A stretch of 64,000 nt of DNA from Candidatus Binatia bacterium (GTDB taxonomy: Bacteria; Desulfobacterota; Binatia; Bin18): contig OY761159.2 of the NCBI GenBank assembly GCA_963664395.2, forward strand, positions 2,944,001 to 3,008,000, read 5' to 3'. How positions within the stretch are numbered: the stretch's first letter is position 1; each line of letters opens with the position of its first letter. The notes under the pieces were generated by a model, which saw only the letters and a program-made list of their open reading frames with translations, ran no database searches and was not told the origin of the DNA. The position numbers were made by a program, and so were the translations under genes. Shown here one piece after another: positions 40,072 to 48,224 of the stretch.

Positions 40072-40395
40072 CTAGCTTTCGAGGGCGGCGCGCACGATGG
40101 GCTCAAGCTCGCCGCGGCTGTGCATTTCCTGGATGATGTCGCAGCCACCAACGAGCTCGCCATTCACATAGACCTGCGGAATAGTCGGCCAGTTTGAATA
40201 GCGCTTAATGCCGTCCCGCACCGCAGGGTCCTGCAACACATCGACGGTCTCGTACGGCACGCCCAGAGAATCGAAAATTTGGATGGTTGCGGCTGAGAAA
40301 CCACACATCGGGAAAGTCCGATTACCTTTCATATAGATGAGGACCTTATTGTTTTTTACCGTCTCATCAATGTGAGCGTGAACAGCATCTGCCAT
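40072..40395 (-). CDS. grxD: Monothiol glutaredoxin Grx4
   Basis: MKG...PMCGFS, WPTIPQVYV, GGCD. Confidence 0.95.
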   Translation of the reverse strand: MADAVHAHIDETVKNNKVLIYMKGNRTFPMCGFSAATIQIFDSLGVPYETVDVLQDPAVRDGIKRYSNWPTIPQVYVNGELVGGCDIIQEMHSRGELEPIVRAALES

Positions 40396-40448: not shown

Positions 40449-40754
40449 TTATGACTTGCTCGTTTCGATATTGACCAATCCCGAATTCTGCGCCTCAGCC
40501 TCGAATTCTTGGGGTGTCATTGTCTTGAGTGTCAAGGCATGAATGCGTTCGACCATGGCATCCTGGAGAGCACCGTACACTAATCGATGCCGGGCGACGG
40601 CATTCTTTCCGGCGAACTCTGCGGAAATAACAACGGCTTCGTAGTGATCGCCGCCACCGGTGTAATCGCGGATATGCACCTGCGCATCGGGTAGCGCCTC
40701 TATGATGCGGGACTGAATTTCGTCTACGGCAATGGGAGCCACGCCTTCTGGCAT
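40449..40754 (-). CDS. bolA: BolA/IbaG family protein
   Basis: GGDHY, F-x-G...RHRLVY, IHAL; adjacent to grxD. Confidence 0.92.
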   Translation of the reverse strand: MPEGVAPIAVDEIQSRIIEALPDAQVHIRDYTGGGDHYEAVVISAEFAGKNAVARHRLVYGALQDAMVERIHALTLKTMTPQEFEAEAQNSGLVNIETSKS

Positions 40755-40882
40755 TGTTGTAAACCTCCGGGTTTCATTCGGGTTTCATTCGAGCGGTTGC
40801 ACACGGTTGTGTGTAACGGGCGTTGACACATGCTATCTGAGCGCCTGGCTGTCTTGCAAGACCGCTTTTTGAGAGTCCTGAT

Positions 40883-40911
40883 AAAAAAGGGCACCGCTTG
40901 CTGGGTGCCCT
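40883..40911 (-). terminator. Intrinsic terminator
   Basis: AGGGCACC stem followed by T6 on the minus strand. Confidence 0.75.
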
Positions 40912-40983
40912 CCGGTGCTAGTGCAATACTGCACTAGCGTTTGTCTACCCTCTGGGATTGCTGGAGGGCAGTTGAAAACGAGG

Positions 40984-41100
40984 CTATTTTTTCTGCATCT
41001 CAGCGCCGCAGCACTTAATTGGGCCGTCTCCACCTTTGGTCACGATGACCTGAGCGCCGCAGCTTCCGCACAGATACATTTTGCCGAGTTGATTTGCCAT
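40984..41100 (-). CDS. 38-aa desulforedoxin-like CxxC...CC protein (not in ORF track)
   Basis: MANQLGKMYLCGSCGAQVIVTKGGDGPIKCCGAEMQKK; AGGAGGT RBS. Confidence 0.85.
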   Translation of the reverse strand: MANQLGKMYLCGSCGAQVIVTKGGDGPIKCCGAEMQKK

Positions 41101-41124
41101 ACTACTATACCTCCTGTTTTTCTC

Positions 41125-41886
41125 TTAGCGTCCGGTAAATCGAGGTTTCCGCTTGGCTAAGAAAGATGCTACACCCTCGGCCCGATCTTGGGTCGTCTGG
41201 AGAAGAGCATAGAGATCTTCTTCCAACCGAACTCCCTGATCCAGCGTCAGATCCATTGCCTTATGTACCGCTTCTTTACCCAGTCGTAAAGCGATGGGGC
41301 CTTTGCCTAACAGACCGGATAGGACCTCGTCAACACGGGTCGAAAAGTCGCTTGCAGCCAGCACTTCAGTGACGAGTCCGATACGATACGCTTCAGGCGC
41401 GCCAACCTGTCTGCCCGTGAGGATCATTTCCAGGGCCTTTGCCTGCCCGACCACGCGCGGCAGGCGTTGCGTCCCCCCACCAAAAGGAATCATCTGCTCG
41501 CTAATCTGGGGGAGGCTGAAGCGAGCCGTCGAAACGGCAAGGCGGAGGTCGCAGGCTAAGGCCAGCTCCAGCCCGAGTCCGAACGCACTGCCATTGAGGA
41601 CCGCGAGCGTCGGTTTTGTTATTGCCGCGAGCGCTTTGACGCACTGGATGGGGCCGAATTGCTCACGAATTTTCTGCGCCGTATCGGCTGCTTGTGTCAG
41701 GCCCTCACAAAAACTATGCTCCGAGCCAGTGAGGACACCAATCTCGACAGCCTCGTCCTCCTCAACTGCCTGGCAGGCGGCTGCCAGTTCCTGGTCCGTC
41801 AGGGGAGTGAGCCGGTTGCCTTGGTCTGGACAAGACAATCGCAGCCAAGCCACTCTCCCTTGAATCTCGTACACAAGATCAGACAC
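41125..41886 (-). CDS. Enoyl-CoA hydratase/isomerase family
   Basis: GLGLELALACDLR, GGTQRLPRVVG, EGVASFLAKRKPRF. Confidence 0.9.
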   Translation of the reverse strand: MSDLVYEIQGRVAWLRLSCPDQGNRLTPLTDQELAAACQAVEEDEAVEIGVLTGSEHSFCEGLTQAADTAQKIREQFGPIQCVKALAAITKPTLAVLNGSAFGLGLELALACDLRLAVSTARFSLPQISEQMIPFGGGTQRLPRVVGQAKALEMILTGRQVGAPEAYRIGLVTEVLAASDFSTRVDEVLSGLLGKGPIALRLGKEAVHKAMDLTLDQGVRLEEDLYALLQTTQDRAEGVASFLAKRKPRFTGR

Positions 41887-41929
41887 AACGTACCCTTAAA
41901 AAGGAGCGTCCATTCGGACGCCCTGCTCA

Positions 41930-43481
41930 CTATTCGTACTGCGCTTTGAGTTCTTTCTTGAGGACTTTGCCCAAAGGATTCTTGGGAAGCTCGTCAATAA
42001 AATTAATCTCCCCTGGTTTTTTGAAGCTGGCCAGCCGTTCCTTACAGAAATCGCTAACTTCGTCCGCAGTGGCCGTCTGATCTGGCTTGAGGGCGACAAA
42101 GGCAACGATCTTTTGTCCCCAATCGACGTCAGGAACCCCGATAATTGCCGCCTCATCAACTGCCGGATGGGCGTGCAGGACCGCTTCGATTTCAGCTGGG
42201 GCGATGTTCTCACCGCCACGAATAATGATGTCGTCCTTGCGCCCGACCAGATAGACATAGCCGTCTTCGTCGATATAGCCCATGTCGCGGGTATGCAGCC
42301 AGCCGTTTTCGTCCAACAGGGCGGCGGTCGCACTTTCCTGATTGGCGTAGCCCTTCATCACGCGCGGAGTATGAATAACGACTTCACCGATCTCGTTGGC
42401 CGGCAGCTCTTTGTTCTCGTCATCAAGCACTTGGACTTCCACATCCGGCAGCGGTTTGCCGACCGAGGTCAAACGCTTGAGATTGCGCTCGACTTCTTCC
42501 GGCGTGCCGTTCAGCTTATGGTCATCCGGTCCAAGGACGGTCAGGGTCGAGTTGGTTTCGGTCTGGCCAAAGGCATTCACGAAACCGGTCGAATCCGGAA
42601 ACATATCAATAGCTTTGCGAATGACGGGGAAGGCCATGGGCGAGCCGCCATAGGAGACGTTCTGTAAACTCGACAAGTCATAGTTCGAGAACTCGGGATG
42701 ATCGATGAGTTGTTTGAGCATCGTGGGAACAACAAAAGCATGTGTGACCTGCTCGCTCTGGACTGCCTCCAGCCACTCTTCGGTATCGAACTGACGCAGG
42801 ATGGCGATCTTCCGGCCGTTCCAGAGCGCGGTCATAATGTTCATCGTGCCGGCAATGTGGTAGAGCGGAGCGCACAGGAGTGAAGTGCCGCGCGGAGTGC
42901 CGTCCGCCATTTCAACCGTGCCGATGACATAATTGGTAAATCCGCCATAGGTCAGCATCACGCCCTTGGGCAAAGATCGTCCCGCTGGTATACATCAGGA
43001 TGGACAGGTCGTCCTCATCCACTTCGACCTCTTCGATGTCGGGCGAACCCTGCTCAATCAAGTCGTCGTAGTGCAGCATATCGTCACGCCGCGTTTCGAG
43101 CGCGACATATGTCTCAACACAGCCAAGATTGGGCTTGAGGCTATTGACCAAGTCAATATAGCGAGCGCCCACAAGCAGAATCTTGGTCTCTGCCGCGGTA
43201 ATCATATATTCCAATTCAGGGGGCTTGGCCCGATAGTTCAGCGGCACAAATGTCGCGCCCAGAGTCGCCGTGGCATAATAGGCTTCGATGTATTGGGTGC
43301 AGTTTGTCTGCAAGATCGCCACGCGGTCACCCGGTTGAATACCTTGGTCACGCAAACCGCTTGCCAGCCGTTTGACCCGGTCCACGAGCGCTCCATAGGT
43401 CAACCGAGTGCCTTCAAAGGCCAGGATTTCCTGGTCCGGAAACATCATACCTGGAATGCCGATGAACTGTGACGTATTCAT
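41930..43481 (-). pseudogene. Acyl-CoA ligase (AMP-forming), frameshifted near 42977
   Basis: Two ORFs join at TAT ACC AGC GGG ACG A TCT TTG CCC AAG (YTSGT-x-SLPKG). FGQTE, GRKDDIIIRGGENI and LPKNPLGK motifs present. Confidence 0.85.
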
Positions 43482-44197
43482 TGTTGCTCCTTCACCAGTG
43501 CAAATAGATTTTGTTCCAGTCGTAAGCCATCGGATAAATTCAGGTCCGCTCCTTGTCGGACGGCCCGTTTTGCCAGGGCTACGACTGTCGGATGATAACG
43601 GGACAGTGTGTATGCCAGAGATTTAGCCTCCGTCAAGAGGGTCGCCAGGGGAACCACCTGATTTACCAGGCCAATTTGGAGGGCTTGGTCTGCCTTCAGC
43701 CGCTTTCCGGTGAGGACCATATCGAGGGCGCGGCCTAACCGAATTGCACGGGGCGCGGTCTGCGTCCCGGCGACCCCAGGGATCATACCGAGGCTCGTTT
43801 CCGGTAAAAAGAAGACCGTATCGTCTGCGGCAACGCACAAGTCGCACAGCAGCGCCATTTCCATCCCACCACCGACGGTATAGCCATGGACCGCCGCAAT
43901 GGTGGGTTGGGGCAAGTGCAACAGCAGCCCCCAATTGTCCCGTTGCCAACGGACTTCACGCGCCCGCACCGGAGAGGGCGCGGACCCGAACTCTGAAACG
44001 TCTCCGCCGGTACAAAAGGCCGGGCCTTCGCCACGCAGGATCATGACTCGGACCTCGGGATCATCCCGCACGGCCTGGAGAATTTCGTACAAATCGTCCC
44101 GCATCTCCACGTTATAGGCGTTGAGCATGGCCGGCCGGTTGAGGCTGACAACGGCGATGCCGTCGTCTTTTTCGTACAGGACTGCGGGGGAAGACAT
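43478..44197 (-). CDS. Enoyl-CoA hydratase/isomerase family
   Basis: AFCTGGD, GGGMEMALLCD, LPETSLGMIPG. Confidence 0.92.
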   Translation of the reverse strand: MSSPAVLYEKDDGIAVVSLNRPAMLNAYNVEMRDDLYEILQAVRDDPEVRVMILRGEGPAFCTGGDVSEFGSAPSPVRAREVRWQRDNWGLLLHLPQPTIAAVHGYTVGGGMEMALLCDLCVAADDTVFFLPETSLGMIPGVAGTQTAPRAIRLGRALDMVLTGKRLKADQALQIGLVNQVVPLATLLTEAKSLAYTLSRYHPTVVALAKRAVRQGADLNLSDGLRLEQNLFALVKEQQ

Positions 44198-44206
44198 ACA
44201 CGCTCT

Positions 44207-45766
44207 TTATGCCGAATAGACAATCTGTCCGTCAATGATTGTTGTGTGGACGCTTGCACTGCTTATTGCCTCAGCAGGGAGCCTCGTCAAGTCACTATCC
44301 AAATCGCTGTCAAGGATATTCACATCCGCACGCATTCCAGGGGCGATTCTGCCGACCCGGTTTTCCTCAAATCCAATCCAGGCTCCGGCGTGTGTGAAAA
44401 GACCAATCGCCTCAGACAGGGAGAGTCGTTCGGCAGGATTGAGGACAATTCCGGTTTGGGATTGGCGTGTTATGGCAGCTTGGACCGCTACCAGTGGTGC
44501 CTGCGGGGCGATTGGACAATCTGAGCTGCCGACAATTGGAATGTTTCGATCCCGGAAACTTTTTGCCCGGTACAACCAGGCGTGCAAATCCGGATCAATC
44601 TCTGCGGCATATTTGTCGCCATAGAAATGAAGAAAGCCGGGCTGCATCACCACCGCACAGCCCGTCTCGGCCAAGGTGTCGAGCAACGGCGGGGGGCAGA
44701 GCGTACAGTGTTCAATCCGATGACGATGATCGCGGCGAGGCAGCCGTTCTTGGGCTTGCCGAATCGCGTCGAGGGCCGCGCACACGGGGGCTTCTTCAAC
44801 CGCATGGATGGCGACCTGAAAACCATGGTGATGAACCTGCCATACCATTTCAGCCAGATCATCCAGGGGTGGATACAACTCGCCCCCACTTTCGTGCAGC
44901 ATGATTTTGATACTGCCAAGCCGGACGCGGTCATACGGACCGAAAGGTTGGAGTTCGGCCTCCAGGACTTCTGGGAAGGCATCAATCCCGACCATGACGG
45001 TTGCATGGGGACGTACTGTCCCGTTCGCGCGTAAGGTGGAGAATCGCGCTATATCCTCAAGTGTATTACCTGCACTCGCATCATGAAACGAACAAATCCC
45101 ATGTCTGAGCAATGCGTGGTTGACCTGTCGTAATCCCGCCTGAAACTCCTGCGACGGGAGCGGAGGAATTGTAGTCCGAAGAAATGACTCCAATTCGTAG
45201 ACGAGGCCCGTTGGTTCTCCGCTTGCGTCGCGCTCGACGTGTCCGCCCCTTGGAGGGGTAAAATTTGCATGTATGCCGGCTCGCCGGAGCGCCGCGCTAT
45301 TCAGAACGGCAGCATGGCCGGTCCGATGGCGCAGGATCACCGGTCGGTCGGTCGCTATGGCATCGAGGTCGTGTCGGTTCGGATGGCGTTTCTCGTCGAG
45401 AAAGAACTCGTCATAGCCATAGCCGCGCAGCCAGTCTTGCGAGCCGAGAGTAGTCAGACGCGCCTGGAGTTGAGAGCGGATTTCAGCAATCGACCGGGCT
45501 GCACTCAGGTCTGCGCCGCAGTAGCGGCTTGCCCAGGCAAAGAGGTGCAGGTGGGGGTCGATGAAGCCGGGCAGAACCGTTCTCCCGGCGCACGCTAAGG
45601 TCTGTGTTTTCGGCGAGACAAAGGAGCGCAGTTCCTCCTCGGTGCCGACCGCGAGGATTCTTCCTGCCGCGATAGCGACCGCTTGTGCTTCAGTCCGGTT
45701 CGGGTCGAAGGTGAGGACATGTCCACCGTAGAGTAGCAGGTCAGCAGTGTGGGGTGCGGAAGACAT
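44207..45766 (-). CDS. Amidohydrolase 3 (YtcJ-like)
   Basis: PGFIDPHLH, GH...NSAAL, QVAIHA, HRIEHC, SSDCP, G-x-I-x-x-G-x-x-AD. Confidence 0.92.
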   Translation of the reverse strand: MSSAPHTADLLLYGGHVLTFDPNRTEAQAVAIAAGRILAVGTEEELRSFVSPKTQTLACAGRTVLPGFIDPHLHLFAWASRYCGADLSAARSIAEIRSQLQARLTTLGSQDWLRGYGYDEFFLDEKRHPNRHDLDAIATDRPVILRHRTGHAAVLNSAALRRAGIHANFTPPRGGHVERDASGEPTGLVYELESFLRTTIPPLPSQEFQAGLRQVNHALLRHGICSFHDASAGNTLEDIARFSTLRANGTVRPHATVMVGIDAFPEVLEAELQPFGPYDRVRLGSIKIMLHESGGELYPPLDDLAEMVWQVHHHGFQVAIHAVEEAPVCAALDAIRQAQERLPRRDHRHRIEHCTLCPPPLLDTLAETGCAVVMQPGFLHFYGDKYAAEIDPDLHAWLYRAKSFRDRNIPIVGSSDCPIAPQAPLVAVQAAITRQSQTGIVLNPAERLSLSEAIGLFTHAGAWIGFEENRVGRIAPGMRADVNILDSDLDSDLTRLPAEAISSASVHTTIIDGQIVYSA

Positions 45767-45840
45767 AGCCCCCAGAAAAGGAAAGAGCGAGGTTTCCCTC
45801 GCTCCTCACTGTTAGGCGTACAGTTTGCAACAGACCGGTA

Positions 45841-45981
45841 TCAGTCAGACGACGGAAGCGGCTTGGCTTCCTTGAGCGGCATTTCTTTATCGCAGCAGTT
45901 GAGCGCGCCGTCGCCCGGCTTGTTGCACAGTACCTCAGTCCCGCACTCTTCGCACATATAGCGTTTACCCAGTTGTGCCAT
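45841..45981 (-). CDS. 46-aa desulforedoxin-like CxxC...CC protein with KPLPSSD tail (not in ORF track)
   Basis: MAQLGKRYMCEECGTEVLCNKPGDGALNCCDKEMPLKEAKPLPSSD; AGGAGG RBS. Confidence 0.87.
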   Translation of the reverse strand: MAQLGKRYMCEECGTEVLCNKPGDGALNCCDKEMPLKEAKPLPSSD

Positions 45982-46019
45982 TGATTCCTCCTGTCGTGAT
46001 ATGTCTCTACAAGTAATAT

Positions 46020-47093
46020 CTACTGTAGAAACGGTAACTTGGTCACCTCGGCTATCATGTCCGCGTCCGGCCTGTCAATCCGCAGCCGGGTGCCCGGCTC
46101 GCCATGTTCACGCCGGACATAGCCCAGGGCAATCGGTCGGCCCAGCGTTGGGGAGGTTGCGACGCTGGTCAGCCAGCCGACTTCCTTGTCGTCCTTCACT
46201 AGTCGGTCGCCTCGTGTCGGCAAGGCAGCCTGCGCCTCATTTTGCAGCAGAAACCCACTGAGCTGACGATTCATACGCCCGCGCGCAGAGGCCCGCTCGA
46301 CGACTTCCTGGCCCAGATAACAGCCTTTATCAAAATTAATGGCTCGGTCGAGGCCGACCTCCAGCACGATTCTTTCTTCGTCCATATCGAGGCCATACCA
46401 CGGAATGCCGGCCTCAACCCGAAGTATATTCAGCGCGGTATGACCGACGGGAAGCAGCCCGTCGAGTTGAGCGAGGGCCTGCCAGACGACGGATACCCGG
46501 TCGCCGGGAACGTGAAACTCATAGCCACCCTTACCGGTCTGGTCAGAGCGAACCACACGGACCCGAACATCTGCAAGCGTTTCGTCCCGATGCTGTAACT
46601 CCTGCTCCGGCAAGGAAGAGAGACCGGCTGCCGCCAGGACTTCTGCCGCGGCCGGGCCTTGGACCGCAAGGGTCACCTGATGGGTGCTCAGGTCTTCAAT
46701 TTCCACATCATCGGCAATGATAAAACGGTCGAGGGCTTCAATCGTCTTTTCCTTGATACGGGCATCAAGGTCGAGAAGGATTGCCGACTCTTCGGCATAG
46801 ACGCGCAAATCCGCCACAATCCTTCCCTGCTCCGTCAGCAGCGTTGCCGGACAGCCCTCGCCGGGCCGCAGGGCTTTGACATCGTTGGACAGCATGCCCT
46901 GCAGAAAATCGGTGCGATCTTCTCCCGTGAATTTCACCTGGGTGCGAAAGGACAGGTCAATCAGTCCCGCCTTTTCGCAGACGGCTGCGTAGTCGTCCTG
47001 CGGGTTGGTGAAGGCGTTCGGGAGTTCAAGGCCGCGATCGTCGGTGAGCGGTACGCCCTGGCTTTCAAGCCAGGCAGAGAGAGAGCTTTTCAT
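46020..47093 (-). CDS. ygfZ: GcvT/YgfZ-like folate-binding protein
   Basis: KGCYLGQE signature, LRVEAGIP. Confidence 0.85.
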   Translation of the reverse strand: MKSSLSAWLESQGVPLTDDRGLELPNAFTNPQDDYAAVCEKAGLIDLSFRTQVKFTGEDRTDFLQGMLSNDVKALRPGEGCPATLLTEQGRIVADLRVYAEESAILLDLDARIKEKTIEALDRFIIADDVEIEDLSTHQVTLAVQGPAAAEVLAAAGLSSLPEQELQHRDETLADVRVRVVRSDQTGKGGYEFHVPGDRVSVVWQALAQLDGLLPVGHTALNILRVEAGIPWYGLDMDEERIVLEVGLDRAINFDKGCYLGQEVVERASARGRMNRQLSGFLLQNEAQAALPTRGDRLVKDDKEVGWLTSVATSPTLGRPIALGYVRREHGEPGTRLRIDRPDADMIAEVTKLPFLQ

Positions 47094-47147: not shown

Positions 47148-48224
47148 TCACGACGCCGCATTCAGACGGCGCAAATTCCGCACAGCCCGGATGCGCTCCT
47201 GGGCCAGGGTAACGGCCAAACGATGGGGCGGGATGTCTCGCTGCTTGGCTTGGGTAAAAATCGTTTTCAGGGTGGAGTAAATCGCTTCGGTTTTGGCCTT
47301 GGCCCGCTCGCGGCGATAGCCGCCGGGACCCAACTCGTCCGCGACGTTAATCAGCCCCCCGGCGTTAATTGCAAAGTCCGGCGCATACAGAATGCCGTGC
47401 GTGTGAATCGCGTCTCCGTCTGCCTCGGTGAGTAACTGATTGTTGGCCCCACCGCCGATAATACGGCAGCGGAGTTGAGGCATCGTCTCCGGATTGAAAA
47501 CGCCACCCGCGGCACAAGGGGCGAGGATGTCGCATTGCTGAGTCAGAATAACGGTCGGATCGACAACCTCGGCGCCCAGTTCGGTCCTCGCCTTGTCGGT
47601 CCGGGCGGTGTCCACATCCGCGACTATCAGCCGCGCCCCGGCTTGGTGGAGGTATTGCGCCAGAGAGTAGCCGACTTTCCCCAGGCCGGGCAGGGCCACG
47701 CTCAAGCCCTGAAATTCGGCCTTGCCATCGGTTTCTTCAAGACACGCCCGCAGGCCACAGAAGATGCCCCAGGCGGTCATGGGGGAGGGGTCTCCGCCGC
47801 CGCCAAACGCCTCCGCCCGTCCGACCCCGAACCGACTCTCGGCCAGGACGTGTTCAATGTCCGCGGTCGTCGTGCCCATGTCTTCGGTTGGAATATAGCG
47901 CCCGGCTAAAGACTCTATGGCGCGGCCCAGCGCCCGAAACACGATCTCTCTATTTGTGACTGTCTGATTGGCGACAACAACCGCCTTGCCGCCGCCATAC
48001 TCCAGGCCGGCCAGGGAGGCTTTATAGGTCATGGCCTGGGAAAGGCGCAGGACATCCGTAACCGCATCATCCTCGCTGGCATACGCCCGCATACGAATAC
48101 CACCCAGGGCGGGCCCTAAGGTGGTATCATGGATGGCAATCAGGGCGGTGAGGCCGGCGTTGCGGTCCGCGCAGAAGACTACCTGTTCGTGGTCTTCTGC
48201 CTGCATGCGTTCAAAGAGTGCCAT
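47148..48224 (-). CDS. Leu/Phe/Val dehydrogenase
   Basis: IHDTTLGPALGG, MTYK, GGGKAV, EDMGT, GLGKVG, ANNQL. Confidence 0.93.
   Translation of the reverse strand: MALFERMQAEDHEQVVFCADRNAGLTALIAIHDTTLGPALGGIRMRAYASEDDAVTDVLRLSQAMTYKASLAGLEYGGGKAVVVANQTVTNREIVFRALGRAIESLAGRYIPTEDMGTTTADIEHVLAESRFGVGRAEAFGGGGDPSPMTAWGIFCGLRACLEETDGKAEFQGLSVALPGLGKVGYSLAQYLHQAGARLIVADVDTARTDKARTELGAEVVDPTVILTQQCDILAPCAAGGVFNPETMPQLRCRIIGGGANNQLLTEADGDAIHTHGILYAPDFAINAGGLINVADELGPGGYRRERAKAKTEAIYSTLKTIFTQAKQRDIPPHRLAVTLAQERIRAVRNLRRLNAAS

Follow-up and report, generated by a model that had tools for sequence, protein, structure and literature searches.

The question raised by this locus is why two very small genes of the desulforedoxin fold should stand at either end of an operon for CoA-dependent enzymes. 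The operon lies on the minus strand of the window, the stretch of 64,000 nucleotides of a Candidatus Binatia genome that was analysed, where the mini-genes Dx46 and Dx38 bracket an amidohydrolase, a crotonase (ECHa), an AMP-forming ligase of the ANL type and a second crotonase (ECHb), with a strong terminator after them (Table 1). An earlier note, made from the nucleotide letters, had described this run and its terminator, as well as two paralogous mini-ORFs with AGGAGG and CxxC-x15-CC as its first and last members. The enzymes were recovered by Pfam matches and the terminator as a G+C hairpin with U6, while the mini-ORFs were found where the note had placed them, matched PF06397 and proved to share 18 of 35 residues (51%, E 8e-13).

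Table 1. Coordinates of the mini-genes, the operon, its signals and the adjoining genes in the window
Feature	Position	Strand	Details
Grx4-type monothiol glutaredoxin	40072-40395	minus	context gene, downstream of terminator
BolA-like protein	40449-40754	minus	context gene, downstream of terminator
Intrinsic terminator, operon end	~40881-40913	minus	10-bp G+C stem, 8-nt loop, U6
Dx38 gene	40984-41100	minus	38 aa, desulforedoxin-fold, CxxC-x15-CC
AGGAGG ribosome-binding site of Dx38	41110-41115	minus	cctcct on + strand, 9 nt before ATG
ECHb, crotonase-family	41125-41886	minus	253 aa, PF00378 E 2e-46
Small hairpin, then U run	41904-41923	minus	between ligase and ECHb; weak, z = -2.1
ANL (AMP-forming) acyl-CoA ligase	41930-43481	minus	PF00501 and PF13193; two frames, 42912-43481 and 41930-42973
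ECHa, crotonase-family	43478-44197	minus	239 aa, PF00378 E 1e-54
Amidohydro_3 (YtcJ-like) metal-dependent hydrolase	44207-45766	minus	519 aa, PF07969 E 8e-84
Hairpin, 11 bp, then U-rich run	45782-45807	minus	within operon, between Dx46 and amidohydrolase gene; terminator-/attenuator-like
Dx46 gene	45841-45981	minus	46 aa, desulforedoxin-fold, CxxC-x15-CC
AGGAGG ribosome-binding site of Dx46	45987-45992	minus	cctcct on + strand, 5 nt before ATG
GcvT-fold protein, YgfZ/CAF17-type C-terminal domain	46020-47093	minus	TIGR03317 78.3 bits vs 49; 38 nt upstream of Dx46

The two mini-ORFs are genuine genes. Both exceed the PF06397 gathering score of 23 in the Pfam profile search (24.1 and 26.8 bits) and are the only matches above cut-off in the whole 5.04-Mb genome; the NCBIfam model TIGR00319 (cut-off 36.05) was missed by both (17.9 and 19.7). 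Dx46 has an extra cysteine, Cys19, beyond the CxxC-x15-CC site and ends in a tail ...KEAKPLPSSD; Dx38 has no tail and ends in ...QKK. The pattern of Dx46 is beyond chance, because relatives were recognised in 137 of 137 candidates of 25-81 aa, at least 562 stretches in species genomes encode them, and the tail is nearly invariant across 50 aligned relatives. RNA-library contigs, in which DNA carry-over is possible, cover both mini-genes as well, in one library from each of two studies (X15, 41023-41489 and 45778-46002; X17, 41024-41486 and 45789-46065). A literature search found no paper on the tailed family.

The solved chains nearest to the amidohydrolase (3ICJ and 3IGH) are both uncharacterised hydrolases. 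ECHa carries what we take to be both glutamates of the hydratase pattern, and ECHb has Gln at what is presumably the position of the second catalytic Glu. The terminator closing the operon is real, with a fold of z = -5.9 over a 111-nt stretch; its hairpin is absent from the list of a consensus terminator scan. The hairpin behind Dx46 is the sole structure kept in the centroid fold (z = -2.3 over 76 nt). The ligase reads in two frames because 2 bases are missing from its P-loop codons, at 42976/42977. The window shows this 2-nt gap in comparison with the loci L004, L006 and L008, and every contig of X1, X4 and X15 that covers the place has AG put in behind 42976. Since the contigs of three sequencing runs lack the gap, the organism most likely has an intact ligase, and the repaired ligase that the earlier note wanted for co-expression is unnecessary. 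Intact orthologues of 512-569 aa are present in 67 of 80 related loci, and all ANL core motifs are kept across 50 aligned members.

The same gene content occurs in three arrangements. The bracket order of the window and its relatives, Dx46-(amidohydrolase)-ECHa-ligase-ECHb-Dx38, was followed in the 65 loci whose downstream flank reaches 5.2 kb or more, in which the ligase (64), ECHb (63), ECHa (62) and Dx38 (62) are nearly constant. Among the 80 related loci, 64 contain an ORF that matches Dx38; 54 of these ORFs are 34-46 aa long, and those inspected end in ...KK. The tandem order ECHb-ECHa-ligase-Dx38-Dx46 is present in 4/4 loci with the whole cluster (L166-L169), and a fifth, L170, which is ended by the contig end, carries ligase-Dx38 and a further Dx38-Dx46 pair. 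In the fused form, a Dx38-like domain is N-terminal and a tailed Dx46-like domain C-terminal; Dx46 and the C-domain of the fused protein P0147 share 58% identity over 45 aa, and Dx38 and the N-domain of P0147 share 70% over 23 aa. By these sequence comparisons, the window pair represents a two-domain protein in split form, and the natural fusions and tandems support the suggestion of the earlier note that the two paralogues work as a pair. A two-domain family with an LKEAKPLP(S/A)SD tail near acyl-CoA ligases in Actinobacteria, which that note had mentioned, does exist (Rhodococcus, Mycobacterium branderi, Streptomyces) and extends to Sphingobium. Family III CoA-transferases are also among the partner enzymes, besides crotonases and a ligase with normal ANL motifs.

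The tailed family tracks one clade of acyl-CoA ligases, because adjacency, ligase phylogeny and presence or absence, even where the genes are unlinked, all agree. Of 58 metagenome loci of the fused type that have 600 nt or more of flank, 46 carry the ligase directly downstream and nine have neither ligase nor ECH there; the ligase also adjoins the fused gene in 4/4 annotated plasmid loci (two of Rhodococcus, one each of Mycobacterium branderi and Sphingobium). In a quick tree with rows chosen by association and a thin outgroup of seven long-branch sequences, a branch with SH-aLRT 99 separates 29 Dx-associated ligases from the seven other ANL enzymes, and the sub-clades of the ligases correspond to the bracket, tandem and fused architectures. 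Presence and absence were compared in ten related genomes. Where a stand-alone fused copy is the only tailed gene, an orthologue-level ligase is encoded elsewhere in 5/5 genomes (590-731 bits, 53-59% identity; next-best paralogue at most 336 bits), and G155 has both a Dx match and the ligase orthologue. In four genomes without any Dx match (99-100% complete), ligase matches are paralogue-level only, the best reaching 367 and 313 bits in two, and two having no match at E <= 1e-70. In a negative control, ligase, ECH or amidohydrolase matches occur in the flanks of 0/10 tail-less classical desulforedoxin-like loci of the same phylum. Thus, the peptides do belong with the ligase and crotonases, as had been proposed, while the YtcJ-like amidohydrolase of the proposed neighbourhood turned out to be optional, and 9 of 11 Cys-less fused genes of type (a) in the window's class have varied neighbourhoods with no shared neighbour. 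A zinc-supply link was seen in only one of these nine stand-alone loci. Two loci, L182 and L184, carry the orthologous ligase without an ECH match within 1.5 kb.

Which part of the family is constant can be read from 343 tailed proteins, all of which end in Asp. They close with SSD in 300 cases, SAD in 19, ASD in 13 and another x-x-D in 11; a non-hydroxyl residue stands at position -3 in 18 and at position -2 in 22, and Ser or Thr is present at one of the two in 343/343. Of 166 short forms, 159 have the C..C...C[C/H] site, and split forms strictly keep their Cys4 sites; of 177 forms of at least 82 aa, 30 have the site, whereas in the other 147, all two-domain members, the tailed domain has no complete one. 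Because most fused forms have lost the cysteines yet keep ...LPSSD, the tail, not the metal, is on sequence grounds the constant feature. Of the 'heterodimeric metal-binding subunit' of the earlier note, the pairing therefore stands, but the metal does not as a constant feature. Acylation of a tail lysine is unlikely, given that K37 is replaced by Q and K40 by R in relatives, and a tail replacing CoA for the crotonases is ruled out, there being no conserved thiol. The fused protein gives a confident AF2 model (pLDDT 92.5, pTM 0.81), apart from its final ~10 residues, which are extended and less confidently placed. Of 48,161 chains compared with the Cys-less C-domain of the fused protein, desulforedoxin 1CFW ranks first, with a 1.5 A superposition of 36/36 residues (Z 3.3). 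Zinc-ribbon ribosomal proteins, a family unrelated to Dx in descent and function, offer a parallel to the split Cys4 and fused Cys-less forms, as they have Cys-containing and Cys-less paralogues in which the metal site was lost without loss of function.

The explanation that we prefer, with a probability of about one half, is that the Dx pair serves the ligase/crotonase module as a non-catalytic, heterodimeric partner and docks by its C-terminal tail. Dx46 and Dx38 would be the halves of a small pseudo-symmetric heterodimer, in which the Cys4 metal site of each half probably has a structural role, and which may be dedicated, by physical binding, to one clade of ligases and the accompanying crotonases. 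The globular pair would present the extended, invariant tail of Dx46 (...K-x-L-P-S-S-D-COOH), and this might dock non-covalently into a conserved site of a partner enzyme, most likely the ligase, so as to stabilise, activate or bridge it. The enzymes themselves may form an ordinary CoA-dependent catabolic module, in which the optional amidohydrolase would free an acid, the ligase make its CoA thioester and the two crotonases process the thioester. Non-universal adjacency speaks against this partner role, as does a terminal Asp that is stricter than many docking motifs.

The invariant Asp would also suit covalent chemistry. The ligase might adenylate the terminal carboxylate of Dx46, or charge the tail with an acyl or amino substrate, so that the intermediate rides on the protein as with LysW/AmCP until the amidohydrolase, where present, releases it. 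The extended tail of the AF2 model may fit such a carrier, as do the hydroxyl residue at -2 or -3 and the strict co-occurrence with an adenylate-forming enzyme. LysW is a plausible precedent, being a small zinc-ribbon-type carrier with a conserved acidic C-terminus encoded in a metabolic operon. However, about one double loss of the hydroxyl is expected by chance from the two single-position frequencies, so its constancy is not significant; relatives can replace the tail lysines, the tail offers no thiol, and the partners are standard CoA-thioester enzymes. The LysW tail is EDWGE rather than ...LPSSD, the ATP-using neighbour of Dx is an ANL ligase and not an ATP-grasp enzyme, and neither window protein matches LysW, PP-binding or ATP-grasp families at E <= 0.01, any loading of Dx being putative. 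The amidohydrolase is frequent (57/65 bracket loci, 2/4 complete tandem loci, 3/5 fused loci scanned) but optional, which leaves the release step suggested in the earlier note weak. The carrier idea is thus weakened and appears unlikely.

Somewhat less likely again is a regulatory cap. Sensing metal or redox state, the pair would inhibit or activate the ligase or a crotonase by plugging that enzyme with the tail, and would tune the flux without being required for activity. The linkage evidence is the same as for a docking partner, the strictly kept Cys4 sites of split forms would suit a sensor, and the hairpin just behind Dx46 could allow this gene to be expressed independently of the enzymes. 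Sensing by the metal site cannot be general, because Cys-less fused forms keep the association; otherwise, the data fit a regulator and an obligatory subunit alike.

It is highly improbable that Dx carries electrons or donates iron by way of an Fe(Cys)4 site of the desulforedoxin type, in concert with the flanking YgfZ-like, BolA and Grx4 genes for iron-sulfur trafficking, with the CoA operon merely inserted between them. PF06397 membership and the intact Cys4 pattern favour it, as do the GcvT-like gene of YgfZ type upstream of Dx46 in 75/80 loci and the BolA and Grx4 genes downstream in 19/65. Against this, no GcvT, BolA or Grx matches lie near fused and tandem clusters, no redox enzyme was seen in the core module among the Pfam matches of window genes, and the ligase tree follows the Dx architecture. 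The loss of metal ligands in most fused members also makes a generic electron carrier unlikely, as the earlier note had supposed. Dx shares the ~36-residue fold and CxxC-x15-CC of Desulfovibrio gigas desulforedoxin (1DXG/1CFW) and the desulfoferrodoxin N-domain (PF06397), and the homodimer of desulforedoxin fits the pairing of two paralogous halves. In contrast to it, Dx consists of two distinct paralogues or one fused chain, carries a G-K-R/x-Y motif conserved at the N-terminus and, on one half, an invariant tail of 11 residues, can mostly dispense with the cysteines when fused, and neighbours acyl-CoA enzymes, which the tail-less genes do not.

Inherited synteny of functionally unrelated mini-genes within one lineage is scarcely credible, since order is reshuffled with content kept across Actinomycetota, Pseudomonadota and the window's lineage, and presence matches the ligase orthologue even when unlinked, despite the best 80 genome loci all coming from one deep lineage (mostly labelled Binatia) and the nine stand-alone fused genes with variable neighbours.

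The logic of the docking partner preferred here would resemble that of MbtH-like proteins with adenylation domains or of DUF35 zinc-ribbon subunits with thiolases. MbtH-like proteins are small, non-catalytic and bind the ANL-superfamily adenylating enzymes of non-ribosomal peptide synthetases, and their genes adjoin the partner or sit elsewhere in the genome, as stand-alone fused Dx genes do; they differ in fold and sequence (no Pfam match) and have no invariant C-terminal tail, and binding by Dx is putative. DUF35/BbsA-type subunits, with an OB-fold and a zinc ribbon, are part of thiolase and HMG-CoA synthase complexes. Like Dx, they are small scaffold subunits derived from a zinc ribbon and encoded within CoA-dependent, beta-oxidation-like clusters, but with another fold, thiolase-type partners and no tail motif. 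OB-fold genes of the DUF35/BbsA type were also observed in the same plasmid regions as fused Dx genes.

Both mini-proteins, a tailed one of 46 aa (Dx46, ending in KEAKPLPSSD) and a tail-less one of 38 aa (Dx38), are encoded by open reading frames whose ATG is preceded by AGGAGG, and CxxC-x15-CC can be read in each of them. Dx46 and Dx38 score 24.1 and 26.8 bits with the Desulfoferrod_N profile (PF06397; gathering cut-off 23), and 17.9 and 19.7 bits, under the curated cut-off of 36.05, with the NCBIfam model of the desulfoferrodoxin FeS4 iron-binding domain (TIGR00319). They are 51% identical to each other and are the sole such genes across the 5.04-Mb genome. Given these reading frames, AGGAGG sequences, profile scores, identity and uniqueness, the earlier observation of two small desulforedoxin-like paralogues enclosing a gene run is correct in every checkable point (AGGAGG, CxxC-x15-CC, paralogy, gene run and terminator; see table). 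All 137 candidates of 25-81 aa were relatives of Dx46, which has 466 representatives (E <= 0.001) in a 50%-identity library and is encoded by at least 562 stretches in species genomes. A Dx38-matching ORF, ending in KK in those listed, is present at 64 of the 80 related loci.

Features of the module and its flanks in the window, followed by unusual crotonases of fused-type loci (locus-prefixed coordinates)
Feature	Position	Strand	Remark
ELFV-type dehydrogenase	47148-48224	minus	upstream end of listed gene run
GcvT-fold protein with YgfZ-type domain	46020-47093	minus	passes YgfZ/CAF17 domain cut-off
Dx46	45841-45981	minus	ORF, PF06397
Amidohydro_3 hydrolase	44207-45766	minus	
ECHa crotonase	43478-44197	minus	
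AMP-forming ligase, two frames	42912-43481 and 41930-42973	minus	
ECHb crotonase	41125-41886	minus	
Dx38	40984-41100	minus	ORF, PF06397
Strong intrinsic terminator	~40881-40913	minus	10-bp G+C stem then U6, ~70-100 nt past Dx38
BolA-like gene	40449-40754	minus	beyond terminator
Grx4-type monothiol glutaredoxin	40072-40395	minus	beyond terminator
Unusual crotonase	L102:9944-11050		
Unusual crotonase	L106:10062-11087		
Unusual crotonase	L142:9846-10913		
Unusual crotonase	L157:9823-10899		

Both mini-genes are covered by metatranscriptome contigs (two libraries, each from its own study), which may include DNA carry-over. In the RNA contigs of run X15 word depth is higher over the mini-genes than over the enzymes, a contig depth that cannot rank genes. 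RNA contigs of two studies (X15 record 9 and X17 record 17) stop at 41023/41024, within the Dx38 frame, and contigs of X1 and X4, of unrecorded library type, continue past this place. Strain variation is the likelier cause of the shared ends, since X15 also holds a variant contig and a loose end near 40998. Within the operon, hairpins that resemble terminators and have U-rich tails follow Dx46 directly (45782-45807) and the ligase (41904-41923); they may be attenuators or RNA-stability elements setting different levels of mini-proteins and enzymes. A promoter scan returned a single site, which lies within the ligase gene; shuffled sequence gave more.

The two-domain hypothetical family with the same tail, which the earlier note had mentioned, does exist. 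A search for longer proteins found 151 relatives, most of 83-111 aa, in which a Dx38-like half precedes a tailed Dx46-like half (in P0147, 70% identity to Dx38 over 23 aa and 58% to Dx46 over 45 aa, including the tail). The family thus occurs in three architectures. In the bracket type, that of the window, Dx46 and Dx38 enclose the enzymes; 65 such loci extend 5.2 kb or more downstream, and they contain the ligase in 64 cases, ECHb in 63, ECHa and Dx38 in 62 each, the amidohydrolase in 57, and BolA and Grx in 19. In the tandem type the order is ECHb-ECHa-Lig-Dx38-Dx46, found at all four whole-cluster loci of other families in the same GTDB phylum; a further tandem-type locus (L170) ends at the contig edge and has the ligase followed by a Dx38-like gene, with a second Dx38-Dx46 pair about 2 kb on. 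In the fused type the order of the domains is that of the tandem genes, Dx38 then Dx46. Desulforedoxin is a homodimer, and the simplest reading of these sequences is that Dx38 and Dx46 would form a heterodimer of the same design.

An alignment of 50 Dx46 relatives shows no change at C10 or C13 and conservation of at least 90% at C29; in 38 relatives of Dx38, C11, C14, C30 and C31 are invariant. The C-terminal eleven residues of Dx46 are nearly invariant in the 50 relatives, and the tail is carried by 343 of the 384 proteins compared, where it ends in SSD (300), SAD (19), ASD (13) or another x-x-D (11). Constant features are the N-terminal G-K-R-Y, a K-x-G-x-G turn and L-P-(S/A)-(S/A)-D at the free C-terminus; the lysines of the tail are replaced by Gln or Arg in distant members, and the extra Cys19 by Val, Ile or Leu in about one fifth of members. 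The metal-ligand pattern is kept by 159 of 166 short forms, whereas only 30 of 177 forms of at least 82 aa, some of them over-called single-domain ORFs, have it. The ligands are therefore lost in 147 of the 177 two-domain relatives, which argues that the reversible redox chemistry of an Fe(Cys)4 centre is not the shared function of the family. To judge from the sequences, the site looks structural, because it is dispensable once the halves are covalently joined, and this dispensability argues against a shared role as electron carrier.

A fused, largely Cys-less member has a confidently predicted fold (pLDDT 92.5, pTM 0.81) of two small beta units, after which the chain runs on as an extended tail. 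In this model of a fused relative, rather than of the window proteins, the C-terminal unit superimposes on desulforedoxin (1CFW, top of 48,161 chains in the VIA search) at 1.5 A over 36 of 36 residues, with a Z of only 3.3 for a very small domain. Foldseek returned no PDB chain for the model at E <= 0.001, and no Pfam family matched the Cys-less fused forms. By sequence, and probably by fold, Dx46 and Dx38 belong to the desulforedoxin-type domain family; their gene context and conserved features set them apart as an uncharacterised subfamily.

The ligase is the most constant neighbour of the family. It contains AMP-binding (PF00501) and AMP-binding_C (PF13193) domains, and 50 aligned ligases share T165-S-G-T, P172-K173, G306/T308-E-T, D400, R415/D417-D418 and G505-K506; the set includes the P-loop, the hinge Asp and the C-terminal catalytic Lys, so every core motif of ANL enzymes is kept. 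Among solved chains FadD5 (8R2Q, E 6e-83) is the closest, with feruloyl-CoA synthetase and 4-coumarate ligases also among the nearest. In the window the gene falls into two frames, as two bases are missing in the P-loop codons compared with three close relatives. Every contig over the place in runs X1, X4 and X15 (X15 an RNA library, the other two from two studies and of unrecorded library type) has AG put in behind 42976, and the closest of the three is otherwise letter-identical to the window. The gap at 42976-42977 is therefore probably an assembly error, the other choice being a rare variant. A pseudogene is the less likely reading, because the bases are present in the contigs of these three runs and the ligase is a single intact ORF (512-569 aa) at 67 of the 80 related loci.

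In a quick maximum-likelihood tree, whose outgroup was small and long-branched (five paralogues from the genome of the window and two other ANL genes from the loci), the 29 Dx-associated ligases all fall on one side of a branch with SH-aLRT 99, in sub-clades corresponding to the bracket, tandem and fused types. The tree took in 12 of the 39 bracket-type and 10 of the 11 fused-type rows of alignment A4, together with four tandem, two plasmid (L157 not among these extra rows) and seven other ANL rows.

The association extends to the fused forms. Among 58 fused-type metagenome loci, each with at least 600 nt downstream, the gene directly downstream encodes an ANL ligase at 46, a crotonase at three and neither at nine. 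A Pfam scan of five of the eight long candidates, with three high-GC loci with many shadow ORFs left out, found a ligase, an unusual crotonase and a divergently oriented, partial family III CoA-transferase at all five and an Amidohydro_3 gene at three. In the crotonase about 170-190 unmatched N-terminal residues precede a match to positions 4-176 of the 251-position ECH profile, and the divergent neighbour, of 400-490 aa, covers only the first half of the CoA-transferase profile. On plasmids of cultured bacteria the fused gene, annotated as a hypothetical protein, adjoins an adenylate-forming enzyme at all four loci examined (Rhodococcus sp. DK17, R. qingshengii, Mycobacterium branderi and Sphingobium sp. 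RAC03), all inside beta-oxidation-like clusters.

Within the class, a second, Cys-less fused subtype was found in 11 of 121 sampled genomes. Two of these genes (L173 and L180) replace Dx46 in the operon, with the GcvT-like gene still upstream, and nine stand alone and have no shared neighbour. All five of the stand-alone genomes searched have, at another place in the genome, a ligase of orthologue level (590-731 bits, 53-59% identity; next-best paralogue at most 336 bits), with ECHa and ECHb beside it in three and no Dx ORF in its 1.5-kb flanks in any of the five. Four Dx-less genomes of 99-100% completeness gave paralogue-level hits only, two of them with best scores of 367 and 313 bits and two without any hit at E <= 1e-70; a fifth genome contains the Dx pair with the ligase between. 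At 10 loci of tail-less classical desulforedoxin-like genes in the same phylum no ligase, crotonase or amidohydrolase hit was obtained. In this comparison of few, related genomes the pattern of presence and absence is that expected of a dedicated partner, not of inherited synteny. One stand-alone Cys-less gene (L171, G143:C8, 6958-12143) lies downstream of genes for a ZnuA-like protein, an ABC ATPase and an ABC-3 permease on the same strand, an arrangement that would point to zinc supply. The other eight stand-alone loci gave no ZnuA or ZnuB hit and weak ABC-ATPase hits in two. A role of the Cys-less copy as a backup under zinc limitation was dropped; the genomes with a stand-alone copy contain a single tailed gene and not both forms, which counts against it.

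A Pfam scan ruled out membership of Dx46 and Dx38 in the LysW, MbtH-like, ACP and DUF35 families. Neither window protein matched the LysW zinc-ribbon family (PF21344) or MbtH-like proteins (PF03621) at E <= 0.01, nor was PP-binding (PF00550; ACP/PCP) hit; a LysW trace appeared at an E-value of 0.16 only, in an unrelated four-domain relative. LysW systems bind the substrate covalently at a C-terminal acidic residue and employ an ATP-grasp loading enzyme of the LysX/ArgX type, whereas the ATP-using enzyme here is an ANL ligase, and no ATP-grasp family turned up among 12 window proteins or 45 ORFs of the scanned fused loci. ACP and PCP are four-helix bundles with a DSL-type serine; the model of the fused relative, in contrast, is all-beta. 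By analogy, Dx46 and Dx38 may work like MbtH-like or DUF35 partners, the likeness to MbtH-like proteins lying in the mode of working only. A limited literature search found no publication on the tailed mini-protein family.

The enzymes themselves resemble an ordinary catabolic module that depends on CoA. In ECHa both glutamates of the hydratase pattern are present and in ECHb the second position is Gln, as read from the sequences; the amidohydrolase, an optional member, resembles only uncharacterised YtcJ-like structures. It is for this reason that a non-catalytic partner is favoured: a Dx46/Dx38 heterodimer would bind the ligase, or bridge the ligase and the crotonases, through the C-terminal tail, a reading given a probability of about 0.5. 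Complex predictions run without controls, pairing the Dx38 and Dx46 alignments each with the intact orthologous ligase of L004, scored 0.12 and 0.13, where the mark was 0.32, and count neither for nor against binding.

The tail might instead make Dx46 a covalent carrier, as its terminal Asp is invariant and the partner enzyme adenylates; the tail, however, has no conserved thiol or lysine, the partners are enzymes of thioester chemistry and the hydrolase can be missing, so that this seems unlikely. Quite improbable is a variant in which the ligase would adenylate the terminal Asp or esterify the adjacent Ser, and the protein would then carry, or serve as the platform for building, a portion of the pathway or a small tail-derived molecule; such a handle would match, in the CoA world, LysW-type carriers or peptide-derived cofactor precursors. 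The pair could equally improbably act as a regulatory plug, which the data do not separate from an obligatory subunit. A redox or iron role, to which the Cys4 sites and the YgfZ, BolA and Grx4 neighbours might point, is very improbable; these neighbours are limited to the lineage of the window.

Acyl-CoA ligases are treated as stand-alone enzymes, and here one whole clade has a dedicated mini-protein. The clade is distributed among uncultured Binatia-type bacteria, Rhodococcus, Mycobacterium, Streptomyces and sphingomonads, in clusters of the lipid-, steroid- and aromatic-breakdown type, and much of the mini-protein family is missed by gene callers and Pfam. Should these ligases require the pair for activity, expressing them in a foreign host on their own would fail or mislead; a tail that takes part in the chemistry would represent a new carrier principle. 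The split forms with metal, the tandem forms and the fused forms without metal also offer a natural series for studying how a covalent link replaces a structural metal site.

Several minor observations concern the surroundings of the operon and the outer members of the family. Three genes of the iron-sulfur-trafficking type (YgfZ-like GcvT-fold, BolA-like and Grx4-type) flank the operon in the window; a GcvT-like gene is upstream of Dx46 at 75 of the 80 related loci, and none of the three was seen beside the tandem forms or the fused forms of other phyla. The ELFV dehydrogenase, with the cluster in the closest relatives only, matches best the model of tryptophan dehydrogenase ScyB (348 bits, well under the cut-off of 600). 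Two distant relatives of 195-196 aa (P0273 and P0346) have four desulforedoxin-like repeats and end in FQVGG or FQGGG, with no SSD tail; among further distant relatives with two domains the C-terminus is INAAF or (I/M/V)SE. In seven proteins (P0302, P0311, P0316, P0332, P0337, P0338 and P0373) an unrelated N-terminal domain of about 60 residues, with no Pfam match in P0302, the one scanned, replaces the Dx38-like half and is followed by one tailed Cys-containing domain. In a single record (P0124, 408 aa) a tailed Dx46-like domain is directly fused to an Amidohydro_3 domain; this may be a gene-calling or assembly artefact and not a true fusion, because its C-terminal part looks frame-shifted. 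Finally, runs X10 and X11 (typed 'DNA?', sponge metagenome) contain 0.73-0.81 of the sampled words of 40900-46100, which hints at the habitat.
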